Assembly (NCBI GenBank): GCA_951406725.2
Contig: OX597840.1
Coordinates: forward strand, 32,922,001-32,986,000
DNA length: 64,000 nucleotides
Reading direction: 5' to 3'
DNA from: Octopus vulgaris
Lineage: Eukaryota
The position numbers and the translations under genes are program-made. Shown one piece after another: positions 2,657 to 35,642 of this stretch. The notes beneath the pieces were generated by a model that worked only from the letters and a program-made list of their open reading frames with translations, ran no database searches and was not told the origin of the DNA. The stretch's first letter is position 1; every line of letters starts with the position of its first letter.

Positions 2657-3536
2657 AAACCATCCTTTTAATAAGCATTTATAGTTTAATCATACACACA
2701 CGCACGCGCGCACACACACACAGACACAGACACACACACACATAGACACACACTCAGCACTTTCTGAATATACTGTCCGCATTCGATGTGTTAGCGACGT
2801 CAGATACTCAACCTCTGTAAAGCGGTTTTTTGCACGATTATTATCTTGTAAACACACACATTATTAATGTGCCCCTGCGCGGCACTCCCGGTGCATGAGT
2901 CACTTTTGTAGTACACATACATACATACATATATACATACATACATATATATACATACATACATACATACATACATACATACATTATGGCTGCCCCCTCG
3001 TTATCGAGTATTGCCATTGCACGAAGCTTAATCAATGTTGTTATCGTGCAATGCCTGTGCAAGAAGATATTTTTTTAAGTGAGGAAAGGCTGTGCACTGA
3101 GTCAATCCCACTCACTAAGCAACAGCAGCCATAATCCGTAAAGAAAAACAAGTCAACATCATCGGTAACCACTGAGCCGCAGGTTTTATGTCGGAGTTAT
3201 CCCAGTTACCTGAGTTACCTTCTCCTAGAAGGATGCCCTAACAAAGGCTAGGAGTCCTTCACTCCCAATGGTTTAACTGCGCGATCGGGTATTCAGTCCG
3301 ATTATTTCTATGTCCCCGCGAATGATACATCCTTAAGGCATTTATTGGATGGCCGTTGACTCTCAAGAGTTCCTCCGCCCTTTGACGGGTTTTGCTTTTC
3401 ATTCCGCAGGGTGTCCAATAAACACCCTCCTCACCAAGCAAGCTTGGTGGGGTTGCCGGTTTAGTCGCCAACGACCCGACCATGCAACAGGTTGTACTGG
3501 GTTACATGTTACCAGTAGCAATCGAAAGTGACCTGA

Positions 3537-5445
3537 CATACATACATACATACATACATACATACATACATACATACATACATACATACATACATACATA
3601 CATACATACATACATACATACGTACGTACGTACATACATACATACATACATACATACATACATACATACATACATACATACATACATACATACATACATA
3701 CATACGTACGTACGTACATACATACATACATACATACATACATACATACATACATACATACGTACATACGTACATACATACATACGTACGTACGTACATA
3801 CATACATACATACATACATACATACATACATACATACATACATACATACATACATACATACATACATACATACGTATGTACGTACGTACATACATACATA
3901 CATACATACATACATACATACATACATACATACATACATACATACATACGTACGTACGTACGTACGTACGTACGTACATACATACATACATACATACATA
4001 CATACATACATACATACATACATACATACGTACGTACGTACGTACGTACGTACGTACATACATACATACATACATACATACATACATACATACATACATA
4101 CATACATACGTACGTACGTACGTACATACATACATACATACATACATACATACATACATACATACATACATACATACATACATACATACATACATACATA
4201 CGTACGTACGTACATACATACATACATACATACATACATACATACATACATACGTACGTACGTACGTACGTACGTACGTACATACATACATACATACATA
4301 CATACATACATACATACATACATACATACATACATACGTACGTACGTACGTACGTACGTACGTACGTACATACATACATACATACATACATACATACATA
4401 CATACATACATACATACATACATACATACATACATACACACATACATACATACATACGTACGTACGTACATACATACATACATACATACATACATACATA
4501 CATACATACATACATACATACATACATACATACATACATACATACGTACGTACGTACATACATACATACATACATACATACATACATACATACATACATA
4601 CATACATACATACGTACGTACGTACGTACATACATACATACATACATACATACATACATACATACATACATACATACATACATACATACATACATACATA
4701 CATACATACGTACGTACGTACATACATACATACGTACGTACGTACGTACATACATACATACATACATACATACATACATACATACATACATACATACATA
4801 CATACATACATACATACGTACGTACGTACGTACATACATACATACATACATACATACATACATACACGCATGCATACATACATACATACATACAAACATA
4901 CATACATACATACATACATACATACATACATACATACATACATACGTACGTACGTACATACATACATACATACATACATACATACATACATACATACATA
5001 CATACATACATACATACATACATACATACGTACGTACGTACATACATACATACATACATACATACATACATACATACATACATACATACATACATACATA
5101 CATACATACGTACGTACGTACATACATACATACATACATACATACATACATACATACATACATACATACATACATACATACATACATACATACATACATA
5201 CATACATACATACGTACGTACGTACATACATACATACATACATACATACATACATACATACATACATACATACATACATACATACATACATACATACATA
5301 CATACGTACGTACGTACGTACATACATACATACATACATACATACATACACGCATGCATACATACATACATACATACAAACATACATACATACATACATA
5401 CATACATACATACATACATACACACATGCGTACATACATACATAC

Positions 5446-5478
<33 letters not shown>

Positions 5479-8334
5479 CATACATACATACATACATACA
5501 TACATACATAAATACATACATACATACATACATACATACATACATACATACATACATACATACATACATACATACATACATACGTACATACATACATACA
5601 TACATACATACATACATACATACATACATACATACATACATACATACGTACGTACGTACATACATACATACATACATACATACATACATACATACATACA
5701 TACATACATACATACATACGTACATACATACATACATACGTACGTACGTACATACATACATACATACATACATACATACATACATACATACGTACGTACG
5801 TACATACACACATACATACATACATACATACATACATACACACATACGTACGTACATACATACATACATACATACATACATACATACATACATACATACA
5901 TACGTACGTACATACATACATACATACATACATACATACATACATACATACGTACATACATACATACACACATGCATACATACACACATACATACATACA
6001 TACATACACACATGCATACATACATACATACACACATACATACATGCATACATACATACATACATACATACATACATACATACACACATACATGCATACA
6101 TACACACATACATACATACATACATACATACATACATACATACATACATACATACATACATACATACATACATACATACATACATACATACATACATACA
6201 TACATACGTACGTACATACATACATACATACATACATACATACGTACATACATACATACACACATACATACATACATACATACATACATACATACATACA
6301 TACATACATACATACATACATACATACACGCATACATACATACATACATACATACATACATACATACATACATACATACATACATACATACATACATACA
6401 TACATACATACATACATACATACATACATACATACATACATACATACATACATACATACATACATACATACACGCATACATACATACATACATACATACA
6501 TACATACATACATACATACATACATACATACATACATACATACATACATACATACATACATACATACATACATACATACATACATACATACATACATACA
6601 TACATACATACATACATACATACATACATACATACATACATACATACATACATACATACATACATACATACATACATACATACATACATACATACATACA
6701 TACATACATACATACATACATACATACATACATACATACATACATACATACATACATACATACATACATACATACATACATACATACATACATACATACA
6801 TACATACATACATACATACATACATACATACATACATACATACATACATACATACATACATACATACATACATACATACATACATACATACATACATACA
6901 TACATACATACATACATACATACATACATACATACATACATACATACATACATACATACATACATACATACATACATACATACATACATACATACATACA
7001 TACATACATACATACATACATACATACATACATACATACATACATACATACATACATACATACATACATACATACATACATACATACATACATACATACA
7101 TACATACATACATACATACATACATACATACATACATACATACATACATACATACATACATACATACATACATACATACATACATACATACATACACACA
7201 TACATGCACATACATACATACATACATACATACATACATACATACATACATACATACATACATACATACATACATACATACATACATACATACATACATA
7301 CATACATACATACATACATACATACATACATACATACATACATACATACATACATACATACATACATACATACATACATACATACATACATACATACATA
7401 CATACATACATACATACATACATACATACATACATACATACATACATACATACATACATACATACATACATACATACATACATACATACATACATACATA
7501 CATACATACATACATACATACATACATACATACATACATACATACATACATACATACATACATACATACATACATACATACATACATACATACATACATA
7601 CATACATACATACATACATACATACATACATACATACATACATACATACATACATACATACATACATACATACATACATACATACATACATACATACATA
7701 CATACATACATACATACATACATAAATACATACATACATACATACATACATACATACATACATACATACATACATACATACATACATACATACATACATA
7801 CATACATACATACATACATACATACATACATACATACATACATACATACATACATACATACATACATACATACATACATACATACATACATACATACATA
7901 CATACATACATACATACATACATACATACATACACACATACATACATACATACATACATACATACATACATACATACATACATACATACATACATACATA
8001 CATAAATACATACATACATACATACATACATACATACATACATACATACATACATACATACATACATACATACATACATACATACATACATACATACATA
8101 CATACATACACACATACATACATACATACATACATACATACATACATACATACATACATACATACATACATACATACATACATACATACATACATACATA
8201 CATACATACATACATACATACATACATACATACATACATACATACATACATACATACATACATACATACATACATACATACGTACGTACATACATACACA
8301 CATGCATACATACATACATACATACATACATACA
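3537..8334. repeat. ~4.8 kb (CATA)n microsatellite with (CGTA)n interruptions
   Basis: Direct; it produces the spurious YIHT/MYVC ORFs. Confidence 0.98.
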
Positions 8335-8639
8335 GGCTTTGGATTGCCGAATGAAGAGATACAGGAAATCCAAGAAGGCTACCGGATGCTAGGCTGCTTT
8401 TGGTCAAGGTGGGCTGCATGGTGTTGTAAAAGAATATTGCCAAAGGATATCGTCGGTTCCTTAGCGACAACAATTCCTTTGTCATTTCCTTGAGACTACT
8501 AATACTTCGTCCCATGTCTTCAAATGTCTCCTTCTTCTGTGTTTAGCCCCCTTGTGGGTAATAAAAAAACATATATAACTTGCACTGTGTACATCTTGCG
8601 GAACCTGCTTACTTACACCTTTCCTACACACCGAACTGG

Positions 8640-10559: not shown

Positions 10560-11205
10560 GGGCGGCGAGCTGGCAGAATGGTTAGCACGCCGGACGAAAT
10601 GCTTTGCGGTATTTCGTCTGCCGCTACTGTCTGAGTTCAAATTCCGCCGAGGTCGACTTTGCCTTTCATCCTTTCGGGGTCGATAAATTAAGTACCAGTT
10701 ACGCACTGGGGTCGATCTAATCGACTTAATCCGTTTGTCTGTCCTTGTTTGTCCCTTTTGTGTTTAGCCCCTTGTGGGTAGTAAAGAAATAGGTATTTCG
10801 TCTGCCGCTACGGTCTGAGTTCAAAATCCGCCGAGGTCGACTTTGCCTTTCATCCTTTCGGGGTCGATAAATTAAGTACCAGTTACGCACTGGGGTCGAT
10901 GTAATCGACTTAATCCCTTTGTCTGTCCTTGTTTGTCCCCTCTATGTTTAGCCCCTTGTGGGCAATAAAGAAATAAGAATCGTTAATACACCGGGAAAAA
11001 TGTTTAATGGGATTACTAGTAAGCCGGACGAAATTCTTCACGGCATGTCATCCGTCTTCACATTCTGAGTTCAAATTCCGCCGAGGTCGACTTTGCCCTT
11101 TATCCTTTCGGGGTCGATAAAATAAGTATCAGTTGAGCACTGGGGTCGATGTAATCGATTTACCACCTCCTCTAAACTTGCTGGCCTCGTGCCAAAATTT
11201 GAAAC
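10560..11205 (+). mobile_element. Head-to-tail multimer of SINE S1
   Basis: Full monomer 10560-10791, 5'-truncated monomer ~10792-10977, a third head, then a variant copy with a different tail. Confidence 0.85.
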
Positions 11206-15940: not shown

Positions 15941-16150
15941 GCTGGCAGAATCGTTAGCATGTCGGGCGAAATGCTTAGCGGTACTTCGTCTGCCGTTACG
16001 TCCTGAGTTCAAATTCCGCCGTGGTCGACTTTACCTTTCATCCTTTCGGGGTCGATTAAATAAGTACCAGTTACGTACTGGGGTCGAGGTAATCGACTTA
16101 ATCCGTTTGTCTGTCCTTGTTTGTTCCCTCTGTGTTTAGCCCCTCTGTGA
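15940..16150 (+). mobile_element. SINE S1 copy at the 5' end of the RTE ORF
   Basis: GCTGGCAGAATCGTTAGCA...GAGTTCAAATTCCGCC...TGTGTTTAGCCCCTCTGTG. Confidence 0.85.
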
Positions 16151-21812: not shown

Positions 21813-21999
21813 CGAGTTCATCATATAGAAAGTTCTAATGAGAGCTAGGGGGTCTTTACCCCCAGTAGTTCATGCCAGCCCATGCCTGGGACCCTAACAA
21901 GTGCCACTACTCCGGGACAATAGTGGTTAAATTATGGTTCCGCATTCCCTTAAACCCTGGAATTCCCGTAACAGGTCTCTAATACTAGATGTGGTATAA

Positions 22000-22405
22000 T
22001 TTCTTTATTGCCCACAAGGGGCTAAACATAGAAGGGATAAACAAAGACAGACAAACGGATTAAGTCGATTACATCGAGTCCCGTGCGTAACTGGTACTTA
22101 ATTTATCGACCACGAAAGGATGAAAGGCAAAGTCGACCTCGGCGGAATTTGAACTCAGAACGTAGCGGCAGACGAAATACCTATTTCTTTACTACCCACA
22201 AGGGGCTAAACACAGAGGGAAAAAACAAGGACAGACAAACGGATTAAGTCGATTATATCGACCGCAGTGCGTAACTGGTACTTATTTAATCGACCTCAAA
22301 AAGATGAAAGGCAAAGTCGACCTCGGCGGAATTTGAACTCAGAACGTAGCGGCAGACGAAACACCGCTAAGCATTTCGCCCGGCGTGCTAACGTTTCTGC
22401 CAGCT
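22000..22405 (-). mobile_element. Head-to-tail dimer of SINE S1
   Basis: Two consecutive S1 bodies; junction on the minus strand AAAGAAATAG|GTATTTCGTCTGCCG, the same as at 10791. Confidence 0.85.
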
Positions 22406-22658
22406 CGCGACTATACGAAATGCAGTACAGTCAGACCCAGGACATAACATACACACACACATACATATATACAACCATAAATACAAATATACATACATAT
22501 GTACACACATACATACATACATACATACATACATACATACATACATACATACATACATACATACATACATACATACATACACACATACACTATGAGGCCT
22601 ATTTTCTTAATTATACTAAACGTATTCTTATTCAAAACAAATATGTTTATATTTGCAG

Positions 22659-24039: not shown

Positions 24040-25260
24040 GTTCCAGGTCAGTGGTCTCCAGGGTCCACCAGTGCTCTCCATCGGTGATGTTCCTGTTCCA
24101 GCCTCTCCGCATCCCCCAAGGTGACGTCGAGCCTCTGAAGATCTTCCCCTAGTCTCGTACAGCCATCTGGTGCAGGGCCTACCACTAGGCCTCTTCCAGC
24201 TCGTAAGCTGCAGAGTCGAATGAGAGTAAAGCCCTTGCAGGATGATCTAGCGGAAGACAGAGCACATGTCCGTACCGGCGCATGCGAACGAAAGCTATGG
24301 AGTGGGCCGCCGCGGGTTGATCGGTGCGCGCATGTAGTTCTTTGTTGGAAACATGGTGGTACCATCTTATGCTCTCGAATGTTCTCGATGACTATCAGGG
24401 CTCTGCTATGAAAGCTGTTGATCTTCTTTGCCAGGATCTTCAAGAGGGGGGCACGTTTCTGCCTTATAGAAGTGAATGGATAAGGCGGCGAGAAACGTTA
24501 GCACGCCGGGCGAAATGCTTAGCAGTATTTCGTCTGCCGTTACGTTCGGAGTCCAAATTCCGCCGAGGTCGACTTCGGGGTCGATAAATAAAGTACCAGT
24601 TATGCACAGGGGTCGATGTAATCGACTTATTCCCTTTTTCTGTCCTTGTTTGTCCCCTCTGTGTGTAGCCCCTTGTGGACAAAAAAGAAATAAGAAACGT
24701 TAGCACGCCGGGCGGAATGCTTAGCAGTATTTCGTCTGCCGTTACGTTCGGAGTCCAAATTCCGCCGAGGTCGACTTCGGGGTCGATAAATAAAGTACCA
24801 GTTATGCACAGGGGTCGATGTAATCGACTTATTCCCCTTTTCTCTCCTTGTTTGTCCCCTCTGTGTGTAGCCCCTTGTGGGTAGTAAAGAAATAAGAAGT
24901 GAATGGATAAGTCCGATGTGTTGTCGATGAGGAGCTTCGTTTTCCGGGAGAAAAAGCAGTAGCGCTAGGGGGCTGCCATGGGGAGATGTTGAAGACGGGC
25001 AGAGGAAACACGACCCTGTGGATCACTCGTAACGTCAGCCATATGACTGCTCCCAAATGACTGAACCCAGTGCATCATCTTCCCCTTCTGGAAATGGAAG
25101 GGCGACAAACTCATCTGCAGCAATCACAGAGGAACCACCCTCCTCTCTATAACGGGCAATCTCTTCATCAGGATCTTACTCAACTGTACCGAACGCGAGG
25201 GAATGCATCTCTCGAAGCGGGCCTTTTAAAAACAGATTCATCTGCAGATCATATGATTTC
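24040..25260 (-). mobile_element. Decayed 3' part of an RTE-like LINE, interrupted by a SINE dimer
   Basis: KKINSFHSRAL..I...EDLQRLDVTL...RWRALV resembles an RTE C-terminus; sequence resumes after the TSD at 24911. Confidence 0.55.
24485..24894 (+). mobile_element. SINE S1 dimer flanked by a 17-bp TSD
   Basis: AGAAGTGAATGGATAAG at 24468-24484 and 24895-24911; both monomers share one internal deletion. Confidence 0.9.
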
Positions 25261-27008: not shown

Positions 27009-27117
27009 ACGATCCCTTTTGATGGAAAAATTGCCCCCCTTTTTTCCCCCCAAAGAAAAGCTCTACTTTGTAATCTGTCCCGTCTGTGTTCAGCCCTTTG
27101 TGGCTAATAAAGAAACA

Positions 27118-27202
<85 letters not shown>

Positions 27203-27249
27203 GTCTATCTATCTGTGTCTGTCTGTGTGTCTGTCTATTTGTCTGTCTG

Positions 27250-27298
<49 letters not shown>

Positions 27299-27645
27299 GT
27301 GGTAACATGTAACAATATTGACCGAGGTTACCGTGGTCTCTTCCGTAGGCTTTTCTTCCCACGGATAAACCTTATCTGCTTCCCCCTTTACACCGTACAT
27401 CATGACACTGTGATATACGATCCCTATTGATCGTTTTTTTTCTTTTTCCCCTTTTTTCCTTTCCTTTTTTATCCTTTTTTCTTTTCTTTTGTTTCTTTTC
27501 CTTTTCTTCTTTTTTTTCTTCTTCTTTCCCTCTTACGATCCCTTTTGATCGAAAACCTACCCCACTTTTTTTTTTCTCTCCCAAAAAGAAAAGCTCTACT
27601 TTGTAATCTGTCCCGTCTGTGTGCAGCCCTGTGTGGCTAATAAAG

Positions 27646-27648
<3 letters not shown>
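27009..27648 (+). mobile_element. Two 3'-end fragments of a retroposon with an S1/Tx1-like tail, embedded in microsatellites
   Basis: ACGATCCCTTTTGAT...GCTCTACTTTGTAATCTGTCCCGTCTGTGT.CAGCCCT.TGTGGCTAATAAAGA at ~27009-27115 and ~27535-27646. Confidence 0.6.
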
Positions 27649-27693
<45 letters not shown>

Positions 27694-29225: not shown

Positions 29226-29325
29226 NNNNNNNNNNNNNNNNNNNNNNNNNNNNNNNNNNNNNNNNNNNNNNNNNNNNNNNNNNNNNNNNNNNNNNNNNNN
29301 NNNNNNNNNNNNNNNNNNNNNNNNN
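29226..29325. other. Assembly gap (100 N)
   Basis: Exactly 100 N, typical of a placeholder scaffold join. Confidence 0.99.
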
Positions 29326-30077
29326 AGTCTGGGCCTCTGCTTGTATAGCCATTGTTATGATCTGGCCCTGCCAAAATCCCTCCTCCTCCACTGTAGCTTG
29401 GAGGATGTTGATTTTTTCTTTCAGGCCCAGCATCACTGCCGCCACCAGGCATGAGGCGTCTGCCTCTGGGGGAATATTTCTCATTACTATCTTTGAAGTC
29501 CTTCTTCCTTTGTACAAGGGTAGAAGGACTAGATTTCCCGCTTTCTGAGGTTCTGTGGATAGCTTCTTAGCTATTTCTTCGGTTCTGAACCTCACTTCTA
29601 CTGTTCCGAACCGTCTTCCTCTATTGATGTAAGTGATATCTTTTCTGATTGTCTTCAGGCACTCCTCTATTTTGCATTCTTCCACTTTTTGTATGCTTTT
29701 TGTAGTCGTGCTGTATGTCTTGTATATAATTCTTTTCTTTTCTATCTCTTCCTTTTTTTCCATATCTTTTTTCACTGCAATTTCATTTCCTTCTTTCTTT
29801 AGAAGGTCTTCATATTTCTCTAGGTTTTCTATATCTATATCTTTCTGTTTGCGTCCAACAACTTCCGCAAACTTCTTTGTTGGGGCCTTTTGTTCTGGCG
29901 TTACCGCCGATTCTTTTTCCGGTGTCACCGCCGGCGTGCTTCTCTCACCCGAGGTTTGAGATTCTTCATCACCTGAGATGGGTGAATAGGTAATGGGGAA
30001 ATCCATTTCGAATTTTCCTTCCAGTTTGCATTCACTGCCTTCCAAAGACATTCTGGCTTTGCAGCCGTTAGTAGAAA

Positions 30078-30112
<35 letters not shown>

Positions 30113-30358
30113 AATGTGTTTCGTACACGAAGGCACACAATAATTCCCCCACGGGGGGAACTACGTACACAACCTTCGCGCGAAGGCCACTAACCGTCTT
30201 ATTGAAAAGACACAAAATAACAATATTAACACAGCAACAATAAACTACTAACTTTCAACAACACTATTTCAGACAAAAAACTCACGTTTCGTTTTTGAGA
30301 ATCAATGAATAAGTCAAAGTAACGTCCTGTCGGGTTCACGACTGCATAATGTTGGGTG
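29326..30358 (-). mobile_element. Partial unit 0 (5' region and N-terminal ORF1, cut by the gap)
   Basis: ORF1 ATG at 30051; poly(A) 30081-30111. Confidence 0.9.
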
Positions 30359-33300
30359 TTTTATTATTACCCACAAGGGGCCAACAAAGAGGGGACAATA
30401 CAACCTGATGTGGGGTCAGATTCACGTATGAGGTTACAAAAGTATGAGTTTAAAAATTTCAAAATTTACAAAAATTGCAAAAATTATAAAAATCGAATGA
30501 GAAAAACAGACCGGAAGACACTACAGGTGGAGTGGGGGCGGGTTCAGCTCGGACCCCACGAGCCCCGCCTCACCACTGATACTTTTGGTTTCGTTTTGAT
30601 CTACATTTATGTGGTGTCATTCATTCTCAACTTCCGTGCTACATCCTTCCATCGTTCTTCATACACTCTTTTAGTCAGGCATTTTCTCTCCAGCCCTATC
30701 TTCCTTTTCAGGTGGTAGATGAAGTAATTCATCAACCCAGGGCCGGATATGAACTTGCCTGACCGTATACCTTTCATTCTCGTCTTCCATATCACCTCCT
30801 TCGCAATTGCTACCACAACGAGAAAACAAGTCTTACCTTCTTTCGCGAGGAAATCTGGTGGGTCAATTTTTTAATACACTCAGTCGACAGCTGTACTCTT
30901 CGTGTGCTTGACAACAGCTGTTCGGCATAAACCCACACCTCAGACACGTCCGAACAATGAACAATAGCGTGCGGGACGGTTTCCCTATCCCGCCCGCATC
31001 TTGGACACATCGGACTGTCTTGGCCACCGTGCCTTGCGAGTTTATCCCGAACAGGTAGAGCTCCTCTGTAGCATTGCCATGCCAGAGACTTCTGGAAGTT
31101 GTCCAGAGTCTTCGGCTCGAACGTACGTCGGAACAGACTAGCCAGCTGATTATCGTCGAGACCCAGGGTTTCCCCCAAGGTGTCTTCACATTCCGCCTCT
31201 ACCAACCCTCTATAGAAGAATGTGGTGGAACCCCCACCGCAGGCGTTGCCCGAGCGACGGAATAGCAGGAGGGCCTTTCGACACTCCGTATACCATGTAC
31301 CGAGTTTCGATCTACGATTCAACCAGGTTTCCCATCCACCGAAACTAGTGAACTTGGGAAACATCAGTTTTGCTAACGGAGACCACACCCGTTCACCATC
31401 CAGGTAGAGCCACAGATGTCTTAACCTCAGCGCATGTCTGCGCATCATCAGCCAAGGCATCCCTAGCCCACCCTTTAACGGTTGTTGACAGCAAGTAGAG
31501 CGTTTCACAAGTGGTTTCCCGCCCTTCCACAGGAAGTAGAAGAGCTGTCTTTCCAACTTGGTCAACCACGAATCAGGGCATGGAACGACGGAAAGGCGGT
31601 AGATGATAACCGATGCGATAAACACATTGGCCACCTCCGCCCTCCCTTTCAAGGATAGCCACCGCCTAGACCAGGTCTTGGCTACTGCAGCCACCTTGCT
31701 CGTTACCTCGCCCCAATTCTTCTCTATTTGGAGGTCTGGACCGAACCAGACCCCTAGCAGTTTAATCGGACCCTCCGTCCAACGTCCCACGACGCTGTCA
31801 GGAGGCATCGACTTGCCTCTCCAGGTGCCGAGTTGCAAGCCGACTGACTTTTCGCGATTAACTTTTGCTCCTGTCACCGTCTCGTAATCCTCTATGGCCT
31901 TGCCTACTTTACATAGGTGGTCCATTTCGGTCACGATGATGGTGATGTCGTCCGCGTACGCTGACACTGATTTTCCATTACCTGGCTGTCTCGGGATGCC
32001 GCTCAGTTTTCGCAGTAATGGCTCAAGAGCCATCACGTACAAAAGCGGGGAGAGCGGACACCCTTGACGAACCGAGCGTTTGATTTTGAACGGCTTCGAC
32101 AAGAAGCCGTTCACCCGAACTACCGAGTCGATGTTGTCGTAAATTTGGATAATCCACCTGAGGAAGCCAAGGCCCAGCCCGAACTGTGCCAGAGCAGACA
32201 CCAGGTAACGATGGTCGACCCTATCAAAAGCTTTGGATTGGTCTAAATGGACCAGTGCCCCACCCTTGCCAGAATCACTATTAAACCCCTCTATAGTGTA
32301 CCGCATTAGATGGAGATTATCCTGAATGGTTCTGCCCGGAACGGCACATGTCTGTGCCTCCCCGATCAGACCATCCGCGACACGCGCCAATCTTTTCGAT
32401 AACACTTTGGCCAAAATCTTCAACTCTGTGTTTAGCAGAGTGATGGGCCTGAAATTATCAATGCACTCCCCCTTGCTCGGGTCCTTTCTGACGAGAGTCA
32501 CCACTCCCCGGCGCACAGATCTGGGTATCAACCCGTTCTGCTGCCAGTTCGCATAGACTTCCGCCAGTAGGTGCCCGAACAAGTCTGGCATATTCTTATA
32601 TAACTCGTAGGGTAGACCATCCAAACCCGGCGCCTTGCCCGCGCCGCAGTCCGCCATTGCCTCCACCACCTCCTCAGGCGTGATTGGCCCTTCACAGCCC
32701 TCCGCATCTCGCCCCGATAAGCGCGGCAGCCCGTCGAGTAGGTCCGTAAAGGCCCTCCTCCTATCCAGTCCGCCGCACTCACCGAAAAGCTGAGCGAAGT
32801 GCTCCTGAAAGGCCTCACACATCTCCTCGGGTTCGTCTATCAACTCACCTTGTTGGTTCTTCAAAGATCGAATCGTGGCATCGTTGCCATTCCGGGCTTC
32901 CACCACTCGGGCCCATCTCACGGCGTTGATTCCTTCACATCCCATATGACGGATTCTAGCCCTGACAATGCAGCCCATGTGTTTGGCCTCGAGGTGCTGG
33001 TTTAACACCAGTCTCTTGGACGCCACCTGAGCCGCAGAGCCAGTTTTCATGGCTTCCTCTAATTCCTTAACTAGAGTAGTTACCCTTCTAGCCTCTCTAG
33101 ACACTACTCCTATGCTATATCTAATAGACTCAAACTTGATGGCTCGTTTGAGGGCGTACCACCATTTGTTATTAATGATGGCACCAGACAGCGCCCTCTG
33201 AATTATGGTCCTAATCCGGTCTCTGTACTCCTTAATCGCCAAAAGGGACGTATTAAGTTTCCAGTAACCGGATCCTCTCTTTCTAACCTTATCTATGTCA

Positions 33301-35362
33301 AGCTTACAGGTGACCATTTTATGATCACTGTAGCTGATCGGGTAAAACTGTGGACGCTTAGCTATTTTACTGTCTACCTTTCTAATTAGAATTCTATCTA
33401 TGTATGACCTGGAAGATCCGTCGCTGTTTGACCATGTCCACAATGGAGCGTTCGGAAATTCCAACCTATAAGGATCTGCTAGCTCAAAGCGGCTTAGCAG
33501 TTCCAGGAAGCATGTTTACCTTTTCTATCATTCGAGCCAACACAATCTACATCCGCTTTGCAAATTGTGTTAAAGTCTCCTAGCACCAACTATTGAATGC
33601 GAAGTACCGAGAAAGTTCTCTAGATCACGATAATAATCACTTTGCCCATTATTACTGCAGGGTGCGTAAATTGCAACCAGTCTGATAACTTTACCGTTAC
33701 TGAACGTCAAATCCATGACGACCAGCCTACCTTCTGGGTCTGAAAAATTAACTTTTTCTCAAAAACCCGGTTTCTTTTTAGTAGGACCAACACCCCACTC
33801 CCGCCTGCAGGACTGCCAGGAGAGAAAAAACTCTCGTAGCCGTCAAACAGTGGGAGTAGATCTCTTGGCCCCTTTAACCGGGTTTCTGTAGCAACAATAA
33901 CATCCAAATTGCGCGACCTGATATCATTAAGGAAGCGACCTTGCTTCCCGCTTGATCCCAGGCCGCGCACATTTAAACAACCAACAGAAATGTAGTTCAT
34001 CACTTACCTTATATCGGTAGTTTGGCTTTTTCGGCGGTTTCGCCTTCTTCTTCATTTTTTTTCTTTGGCTCGTGGGGGAGTCCGACGTAGGCCCTCGTAT
34101 AGATATGGAGACATGTCCAGTCTCAGAGGGCCCACGTCGTGGAAGAACTCGGATTTTATCCTCCTGTAGTCCTTCCGGCCTATTTTATATATGATGAAGT
34201 CTTTCATCTTCCTTACACGTTCCACCTTGGCCATGGCTGCCAACACATTGACAAGTCTGTTGTTAGTAGCCTTAATGGCCATAAATGAAGAAGTAACCTC
34301 TTTCCTTTTCTTTAGGTTTTCTTCTTCTTGAGGGGTGGTTTCAGTTTTCCGTTTTTTTTTGGTAACTTTAGACCACCCCTCCTCTTTTTCGTTTTCTTTT
34401 TCCTTTTCTGCAGCTTTTTCCACCTCTTTGGTTTCCTTTTTTTCCTCCGTTTCTTCTTTCTCCGACGGTTCTTCTGTCTGCGGTTTCGGTTGACACTCCG
34501 CTCTCACGTGCCCCTTCTTTCCGCAGCCGAAGCACCTCGGTTTTCTTCCTTCTACAAATACTAGAACTCGCTCCTCCTCATCTAGCCTCAGCACCTCTGG
34601 TATTTCTTCCAGAGTCTGGGCCTCTGCTTGTATAGCCATTGTTATGATCTGGCCCTGCCAAAATCCCTCCTCCTCCACTGTAGCTTGGAGGATGTTGATT
34701 TTTCTTTCAGGCCCAGCATCACTGCCGCCACCAGGCATGAGGCGTCTGCCTCTGGGGGAATATTTCTCATTACTATCTTTGAAGTCCTTCTTCCTTTGTA
34801 CAAGGGTAGAAGGACTAGATTTCCCGCTTTCTGAGGTTCTGTGGATAGCTTCTTAGCTATTTCTTCGGTTCTGAACCTCACTTCTACTGTTCCGAACCGT
34901 CTTCCTCTATTGATGTAAGTGATATCTTTTCTGATTGTCTTCAGGCACTCCTCTATTTTGCATTCTTCCACTTTTTGTATGCTTTTTGTAGTCGTGCTGT
35001 ATGTCTTGTATATAATTCTTTTCTTTTCTATCTCTTCCTTTTTTTCCATATCTTTTTTCACTGCAATTTCATTTCCTTCTTTCTTTAGAAGGTCTTCATA
35101 TTTCTCTAGGTTTTCTATATCTATATCTTTTGTTTGCGTCCAACAACTTCCGCAAACTTCTTTGTTGGGGCCTTTTGTCCTGGCGTTACCGCCGATTCTT
35201 TTTCCGGTGTCACCGCCGGCGTGCTTCTCTCACCCGAGGTTTGAGATTCTTCATCACCTGAGATGGGTGAATAGGTAATGGGGAAATCCATTTCGAATTT
35301 TCCTTCCAGTTTGTATTCACTGCCTTCCAAAGACATTCTGGCTTTGCAGCCGTTAGTAGAAA

Positions 35363-35394
<32 letters not shown>

Positions 35395-35642
35395 GAATGT
35401 GTTTCGTACACGAAGGCACACAATAATTCCCCCACGGGGGGGAACTACGTACACAACCTTCGCGCGAAGGCCACTAACCGTCTTATTAAAAAGACACAAA
35501 ATAACAATATTAACACAGCAACAATAAACTACTAACTTTCAACAACACTATTTCAGACAAAAAACTCACGTTTCGTTTTTGAGAATCAATGAATAAGTCA
35601 AAGTAACGTCCTGTCGGGTTCACGACTGCATAATGTTGGGTG
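30359..35642 (-). mobile_element. LINE unit A (ORF1 and ORF2 frameshifted as assembled)
   Basis: ORF2 pieces 33707-34003, 30810-33464, 30607-30816; ORF1 pieces ~34052-35336; boundary set at the SINE-like tail. Confidence 0.9.

Follow-up and report, generated by a model that had tools for sequence, protein, structure and literature searches.

A very abundant family of short interspersed elements (SINEs) in Octopus vulgaris ends in the same 3′ tail as a long interspersed element (LINE) that we assign to the Tx1 clade. The LINE forms a head-to-tail array in a stretch of 64,000 nucleotides (assembly GCA_951406725.2, contig OX597840.1, positions 32,922,001 to 32,986,000 of the forward strand), which was analysed at its full length and is called the window below. 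In our reading the tail is a likely RNA signal for the reverse transcriptase (RT) of the clade. Mobilisation of the SINE was probably the work of this clade, with an older sister lineage of the LINE in the window as the most likely agent, and short RNA read-through beyond the tail would take part in the choice of site. We give this reading a probability of about 0.72. Genome searches were done on the 2.8-Gb assembly of 227 contigs, where the window is C27:32922001-32986000.

The common tail and the lineage behind the SINE

When a copy of the SINE tail was compared with a 5,294-nt LINE unit it aligned only at the last 46 nt, with a score of 53 and 36 of 41 letters matching. Dinucleotide-block shuffles (300) gave a mean score of 19 and a maximum of 29, and the score fell to 17 when the last 60 nt of the unit were removed. 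The match between the two tails, first proposed in a first-pass annotation made from the letters of the window, is therefore well above the shuffle maximum. The LINE motif quoted there is found at 30364-30403 in the plus-strand view, slightly to the right of the 30359-30402 given for it, and the element itself ends at 30357. There is one such motif per array unit (at 30364, 35648, 40935, 46229, 51525, 56822 and 62112).

The same annotation took this point to be the true 3′ end of the element, and the dispersed copies agree. A 719-nt query spanning the junction gave 42 genome matches: 27 run through and are internal array junctions, 13 end at query positions 472-477, which correspond to window position 30357, and two are small side matches. 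In 32 of 32 distinct LINE 3′ ends printed the tail is common and the sequences then diverge. A further 40 copies, fetched from the 150 listed by a protein search for similarity to open reading frame 2 (ORF2), likewise all end at the tail, and contigs from three independent runs lose the match at 30355-30359. Terminal, solo and 5′-truncated copies thus stop at the tail genome-wide; dispersed copies diverge after it instead of running on to a poly(A). The poly(A) tract at 30081-30111 was considered as a 3′ end and rejected, as it lies in the 5′ untranslated region (UTR) of the next unit. The stretch with this A31 tract has only 55 genome candidates versus 1665 for the 3′ part of the LINE. Solo copies and arrays open with 30112-30356 and the A31 tract, which makes this stretch the 5′ part of the next unit.

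For the tail RNA a GCCC-CUUGU-GGGY stem-loop had been proposed. The RNAalifold consensus of 19 tails recovers this hairpin, with a 4-bp stem and a predicted energy of −3.9 kcal/mol. None of seven single tails folds better than its shuffles (z-scores from +1.15 to −1.56, the LINE tail having +1.15), pair counts in the stem are not above those of column shuffles (28-309 of 500 shuffles were equally high), and the change seen in the stem is a one-sided one between G-U and G-C. With folding energy and covariation at the level of shuffles, the stem-loop is a weakly predicted, if plausible, RNA structure.

The tail is a clade-wide feature of the Tx1 lineages in this genome. It is present in subfamilies at 88-98% DNA identity and in families at about 90, 80, 64 and 59% ORF2 identity, is partial or degenerate in a lineage at 43% ORF2 identity, and also ends units of 1.7-1.8 kb that carry ORF1 only. 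Across lineages whose remaining 3′ UTRs have diverged it is held at the exact 3′ terminus, and the assignable non-SINE tails all belong to Tx1 elements or to ORF1-only derivatives. A captured SINE fragment would be expected to be missing from related Tx1 families, as the first-pass annotation had pointed out; the tail turned up in all of the related lineages looked at within this genome, and we take it to have arisen in this clade.

Regarding the clade, the LINE is classed as Tx1 and Keno-like from U2 flanks, domain content and target behaviour. Its ORF2 has the APE-RT-zf-RVT organisation (Pfam PF03372, PF00078 and PF13966), and its best sequence match in PDB is L1 ORF2p (E-value 2e-71). ORF1 matches clusters of CCHC and ZCCHC3 domains in the atlas at 0.90-0.92, the Pfam match to CCHC having an E-value of only 0.18. 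In an RT tree made with FastTree four metagenome elements with U2 small nuclear RNA (snRNA) in their flanks form a group with the LINE (support 0.99), in line with the Tx1 assignment made earlier; the tree holds 64 sequences, including about a third of 80 metagenome loci, and no named Repbase references. On the metagenome contigs L291, L293, L294 and L301 Tx1 elements adjoin U2 snRNA sequence in a Keno-like manner.

The SINE is about 232 nt long and of tRNA type (A and B boxes were read by eye), with target-site duplications (TSDs) and a high copy number. Its central domain may resemble that of the Deu/Nin superfamily, for which no reference sequence was found. The tail has 91,523 exact 27-nt matches genome-wide. 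In 400 kb of unselected sequence, taken at round coordinates, SINE matches make up 3.0% of the bases (76 matches, 41 of them with the 3′ end), and 35 of 35 tail motifs lie within SINEs. Copies are a median of 7.6% away from the majority sequence (n=60). In the window the five SINE tails that had been cited are present (10745-10792, 10930-10975, 21999-22045, 22181-22230 and 24850-24894), and the lone tail reported at about 8538-8568 is found at 8534-8569; an additional tail at 24648-24692 had been missed. Compared by eye, the SINE is unlike the bivalve MetaSINE sequences in the part of the supplement of PMC4824008 available to us (here and below, cited papers are represented by passages from them).

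It had been proposed that this LINE family or a close relative drives the SINE. Our results point to a close relative and away from the family in the window. The window subfamily (A) has 43 exact 38-nt tails genome-wide and is 1-7% diverged. An older family, Z (L455-L486), matches the SINE tail in 50 of 56 and 51 of 58 letters (scores 80 and 77), compared to 36 of 41 (53) for the window LINE, and ends in nearly the terminal letters of the SINE, whereas those of the window subfamily differ. Because older relatives match the SINE better, the young window subfamily is an unlikely driver. Of 30 family Z loci 20 have an ORF1 match and none an ORF2 match. Another family, X, is associated with (TATC)n and has 4111 candidates; its divergence is 5.6% among the 30 best matches, a figure that is biased low, and the age of the SINE seems closer to this family than to the window family. 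A search for LINE-type upstream letters combined with a SINE-type tail gave three matches, one being a deleted SINE and two belonging to family Z.

It could be argued that an ancestral Tx1 element took the tail from the SINE, or that the tail is passively shared, and that another LINE clade mobilises the SINE. The absence of the tail from distant Tx1 relatives in other organisms would fit this, and RTE, CR1 and R4 families are reported as active in an octopus genome in the passages of PMC13282606. The position of the tail at the exact 3′ terminus in lineages with otherwise diverged 3′ UTRs, and the restriction of assignable non-SINE tails to Tx1 and its derivatives, make this explanation improbable. 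Still less probable is an expansion of the SINE driven by the window's own subfamily. This subfamily has a matching tail, intact ORFs and a TSD length similar to that of the SINE. Against it are its 43 exact tails set beside 91,523, an age below that of most SINE copies, different terminal letters, a worse match than that of its sister lineages and no targets in common with the SINE; the divergence figures already suggest that the SINE burst came before the subfamily arose. Finally, other repeats are often targeted by Tx1 elements (passages of PMC4494074), but the idea that the motif is host DNA, i.e. a SINE end hit by the LINE, can practically be dismissed, since upstream of the TSD each copy has the tail in the form of its own LINE lineage, no SINE head is seen at the 5′ edge and the empty-site comparison shows targets without the tail.

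Several points weigh against our reading. The tail hairpin is weak and has no significant covariation. In the 80 distant metagenome relatives from other organisms no tail scored above control (the best reached 29, the reverse-strand control 26). A full-length, ORF2-coding member of family Z was not found, the copies seen being ORF1-only or short. It is also important to note that sequence sharing by itself cannot tell which LINE acted.

Targets and how they may be chosen

The target specificity of the LINE and its tandem array were both missed in the first-pass annotation. Arrays of the window subfamily on C8, C22, C24, C27, C30 and C58 have flanks in common, derived from a multicopy, non-coding host locus that we call P (128-172 candidates). 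The insertion zone in P is about 70 nt long and lies directly downstream of a TATA-like box; older P copies also have what we take to be CCAAT-like and octamer-like motifs. In the P leader there are at least eight insertion points, used by five families, with 5′-truncated copies and many empty P copies, and this variety argues for repeated targeting of P. Exact subfamily-A tails have 33 distinct 3′ flanks, among which 27 derive from P, one is target D and five are other sequences. With a TSD and far more than 20% of flanks of one kind, this is a target preference by Kojima's rule. On many chromosomes the flanks of P show 90-99% identity over kilobases, as they would if the LINE-bearing loci were segmental copies of a single insertion. 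The differing insertion points and families, the truncated copies and the empty sites largely refute this, and we regard it as highly improbable.

P (L134-L153, from about −10 kb to +8 kb) lies in a block of 10-20 kb that has been duplicated onto many chromosomes. Decayed remnants of mariner, Tc1 and RTE elements are found in this block, together with a long microsatellite and a GC-rich tandem repeat of 70 bp. Looking for a protein gene or snRNA at P we saw no long ORF within about 10 kb except transposon remnants, and Rfam on the target loci gave only microsatellite-driven miRNA matches. The ORF1-only units of 1.7-1.8 kb (L367, L368, L372 and L375-L378) are non-autonomous Tx1 derivatives with the same tail; they stand in tandem within the P leader, mixed with full elements.

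Sister subfamilies of the window LINE use other targets, namely B (with a 12-nt TSD), C, D and (TATC)n. Target B is a repeat containing a Tx1 ORF1 remnant and hosts the largest young subfamily (L206 and 26 similar tails). LINE copies have exact repeats of 10-19 nt at 22 of 40 loci, with a mode of 12, and the TSD of the SINE is about 10-20 nt in clear cases. For the comparison that had been recommended between SINE and LINE this means that TSD lengths are alike and targets are not, as 0 of 114 SINE copies lie in LINE targets. The copies inserted in D keep a P leader at the 5′ end, which suggests transcription from the P promoter followed by a switch of target. The window subfamily itself probably borrows the P promoter.

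Differences between the endonucleases are small. Between L185, inserted in target P, and L186, inserted in target D, about 3 of 239 residues are different. The hairpin predicted to contact DNA is identical in A, C and D; we assume that it acts like its counterpart in L1-type enzymes, which touches the DNA. Young, intact subfamilies that differ in target but hardly in protein are a natural test set for target change in site-specific retrotransposons.

The flanks of the SINE have a pattern of their own. Of 102 SINE 3′ flanks 72 start with GGTA, TATA or AGAA. The SINE sequence from position 49 begins with GGTA and that from position 16 with AGAA, these positions being the joints of its tandems, and (TA)n begins with TATA. 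Copies directly preceding such a tandem unit number 31 of 102; among the 71 non-tandem copies the flank is GGTA in 14 (background 0.25%), AGAA in 8 and TATA in 22, all three well in excess of background. The GGTA class goes with one SINE allele (6 of 19 versus 1 of 24, p 0.03 by Fisher's test). Most family X copies that lie outside the microsatellite still start with its first letters (six cases).

We consider the chances somewhat better than even that a short read-through RNA pairs with the nicked strand and so helps to choose the site. ORF2p would bind the tail and nick DNA with loose specificity, and a few bases read through beyond the tail would anneal to the nicked strand. Each source copy would then tend to re-insert into sequence resembling its own site, and re-insertion would regenerate the target with a TSD of 12-17 nt. 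If this is true, the outcome would be head-to-tail LINE arrays, mixed arrays of LINE and ORF1-only units, and SINE tandems.

A serious, if less favoured, explanation is that the tail pair is real and the endonuclease alone sets the targets, the read-through RNA having no role; the SINE flanks would then reflect the preference of an unseen, less specific family. The passages of Kojima 2015 (PMC4494074) name the endonuclease as the main determinant of target choice in Tx1, subfamily B has endonuclease changes of its own, and a top-strand C precedes most LINE nicks. Harder to reconcile with it is that near-identical endonucleases occupy unrelated targets, and that GGTA starts no LINE target seen, yet is the SINE's own junction and tracks the SINE allele. 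The specificity of the endonuclease protein may still contribute to target choice.

The read-through reading has its own difficulties. The lack of targets common to SINE and LINE (0/114) can be explained by it only through the proposed read-through step. A loop of the endonuclease near residues 119-123 varies between subfamilies, mismatches between TSD copies that suggest RNA-templated bases number only about two or three, and only three to five off-target LINE copies are readable. The use of the P promoter is indicated by motifs and captured leaders only.

Several family members adjoin predicted self-cutting RNA motifs lying downstream of them, a kind of Tx1 target that was not found in the literature. 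Folds resembling type I hammerheads are found 60-150 nt downstream, on the sense strand, at C, D and older P copies. Minimal motifs of this type are common in the genome. As background, the full pattern occurs at 10 sites in 400 kb (L384-L423) and at none in shuffles, and a loose pattern at 32 of 4000 random positions. Target D, for which there are 1058 candidate copies and many of these identical, is built of tandem 480-bp units and matches the full hammerhead descriptor; it can be described as a retrozyme-like tandem repeat with a predicted hammerhead per unit. The D family (L186:5655-6600 and genome-wide) is young and contains a long palindrome, some copies being in inverted arrangement. 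Two Z copies precede looser hammerhead cores, one of them adjoining an apparent remnant of what we take to be a GIY-YIG domain. No Penelope ORF was seen at P.

Weighing against a general link with hammerheads, D reaches only 14.5 bits on Rfam Hammerhead_1 (gathering threshold 34, E-value 0.7). In the P motif the core U is replaced by C; this motif shows the pattern in 4 of 10 loci, gives no Rfam hammerhead match and is partly deleted in the younger copies adjoining the window subfamily. No hammerhead lies near (TATC)n or near target B, whose group is the largest with 27 tails.

All these observations could be joined in a wider scheme, which we think rather doubtful: a Tx1 radiation with an RNA-remembered target, in which tail read-through into a host repeat acts as guide and allows one-jump switches without endonuclease change, elements settle repeatedly upstream of retrozyme or Penelope hammerheads, and the same machinery, guided by read-through from the SINE itself, built about 3% of the genome. 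If it were true, hammerhead-adjacent sites would supply a promoter in front, cut the transcript behind and leave a ready-made guide.

The array and other features of the window

The array unit is 5.29 kb long. Among the six complete units identity is 99.74-99.96%, and their alignment has 23 columns with substitutions and 32 with indels. The 5′ edge of the array lies about 3.4 kb outside the window. Coordinates are collected in the table.

Table. Features of the LINE array and SINE copies in the window (window coordinates)
Feature	Position	Strand	Remarks
LINE 3′ terminal tail, common to SINE	30357-30403	-	true 3′ end at 30357
Head-to-tail LINE array	29326-64000	-	at least 7 units, spacing 5284-5297 nt
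LINE array unit with the studied tail	30357-35640	-	ORF2 open for last 901 codons (30810-33515), frameshifts upstream
Intact ORF2, 1131 aa	41181-44576	-	APE endonuclease, RT, zf-RVT
Intact ORF1, 470 aa	44503-45915	-	CCHC knuckle (Pfam E-value 0.18); ZCCHC3-like by embedding (0.90)
ORF1 start of a further LINE unit	29326-30051	-	broken off by 100-N assembly gap 29226-29325
Core 5′ UTR of next LINE unit	30052-30290	-	two conserved hairpins (~30125-30190), internal A31 tract (30081-30111)
5′ leader of next LINE unit	30291-30339	-	resembles leader of multicopy target locus P (captured target sequence)
17-nt TSD-like junction	30340-30356	-	identical at all 7 junctions; also at array 5′ edge, before first unit
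SINE tandem, full unit and unit from position 49	10560-10975	+	
SINE tandem, near-full unit and unit from position 49	21999-22408	-	
SINE tandem, two units from position 16	24491-24894	+	whole dimer flanked by one 16-17 nt direct repeat
SINE copy	15941-16149	+	tail cut within hairpin
Lone tail	8534-8569	+	extremely 5′-truncated SINE or LINE copy

We read the 17-nt junction repeat as a probable TSD, the 3′ edge of the array being lost in the gap. The identical junctions could stem from insertions made again and again into a regenerated target; unequal crossing-over explains them just as well, which counts against the insertion model for this array. In the neighbouring array at C27:31.87 Mb the junctions differ, and independent insertions are therefore favoured there. 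The 50-kb contig C58 (L007-L010, L379 and L380) holds the same array with a near-identical junction and, in addition, the downstream part of P. It could represent the second haplotype, or else the 3′ side that the window array lacks.

The two hairpins of the 5′ UTR (30125-30190, minus strand; also at the 5′ ends of L186, L191 and L206) are kept in different subfamilies while the flanking UTR has diverged (z-score −4.7). They have no match in Rfam and could be a promoter or translation element.

Elsewhere in the window, a 4.8-kb (ACAT)n microsatellite (3536-8334) is the source of long false ORFs. Fragments of the older (TATC)n-associated family X, with tail, lie at 27052-27688 and adjoin a (TATC)n run at 27118-27298. 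Scans of the window gave no matches with Rfam and no tRNAs with ARAGORN.

Comparison with known systems

No report of this Tx1/SINE pair or of Tx1 elements targeting hammerhead repeats was found in the literature; Repbase reports, subscription papers and supplements could hold either. The octopus repeat annotation (PMC13282606) counts, in the passages seen, 13 L1-Tx1 families as recently active, with most SINEs left unclassified, and the passages of papers on MetaSINE, mollusc and bivalve SINEs (PMC4824008, PMC4758252, PMC11481361 and PMC5804259) name no Tx1 partner.

Stringent SINE/LINE pairs are described for L2, CR1 and RTE and for the L1 clade of maize and Chlamydomonas (PMC3747384). As in these, the octopus pair has its last tens of nucleotides and a small predicted hairpin in common; the octopus hairpin is without compensatory support, and the table rows available from that paper hold no Tx1 or mollusc pair. 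According to the passages of Ohshima 2013 (PMC3747384) only three SINEs have L1-clade tails, all from plants and a green alga. Our results would name a likely engine of one of the most abundant SINEs in this genome and add an example from animals to stringent 3′ recognition within the L1/Tx1 group, which bears on the question whether poly(A)-type recognition is derived.

The closest known elements are those of the Keno/Tx1-Mar group (Kojima 2015, PMC4494074). In the passages of that paper SINEU has been linked to the Keno-related Tx1-Mar by shared target and age, and tandem insertion and targeting of other transposons have been reported for Tx1. The octopus elements are alike in the APE-RT ORF2, an apparent CCHC ORF1, the RT grouping with U2-flanked elements and a SINE tied to Tx1, as well as in insertion into repeats, two unrelated target sites in one group, tandem insertion and 5′ capture of target sequence. 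SINEU differs in ending in poly(A), and no LINE with a similar 3′ part is named for it in the passage, whereas the octopus pair is tied by a tail that is not poly(A). A further difference from Tx1-Mar and SINEU is that the octopus SINE has no target in common with its LINE and that targets include hammerhead-bearing repeats.

Non-LTR retrozymes are tandem repeats with hammerheads and units of 150-450 bp (Cervera and de la Pena 2020, PMC7229834, as quoted). Like these and the Penelope hammerheads (bioRxiv 10.64898/2026.07.22.740005), D is a low-GC tandem with one type I hammerhead-like motif per unit, and C and P have predicted minimal forms. The 480-bp unit of D is slightly above the quoted range, and targeting of such repeats by LINEs is not mentioned in the passages of these sources.

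For the proposed guide there is a precedent of a different kind. In RTE-related SINEs the 3′ repeats correlate with the start of the TSD, and the RNA 3′ end has been proposed to pick the priming site (Nishiyama and Ohshima 2018, PMC6007223, in the passages available). If a short 3′ RNA flank can redirect insertion in this way, it would be relevant to RNA-programmed gene insertion. In that system the guide is a built-in microsatellite, whereas in octopus it would be a read-through flank that varies between source copies.

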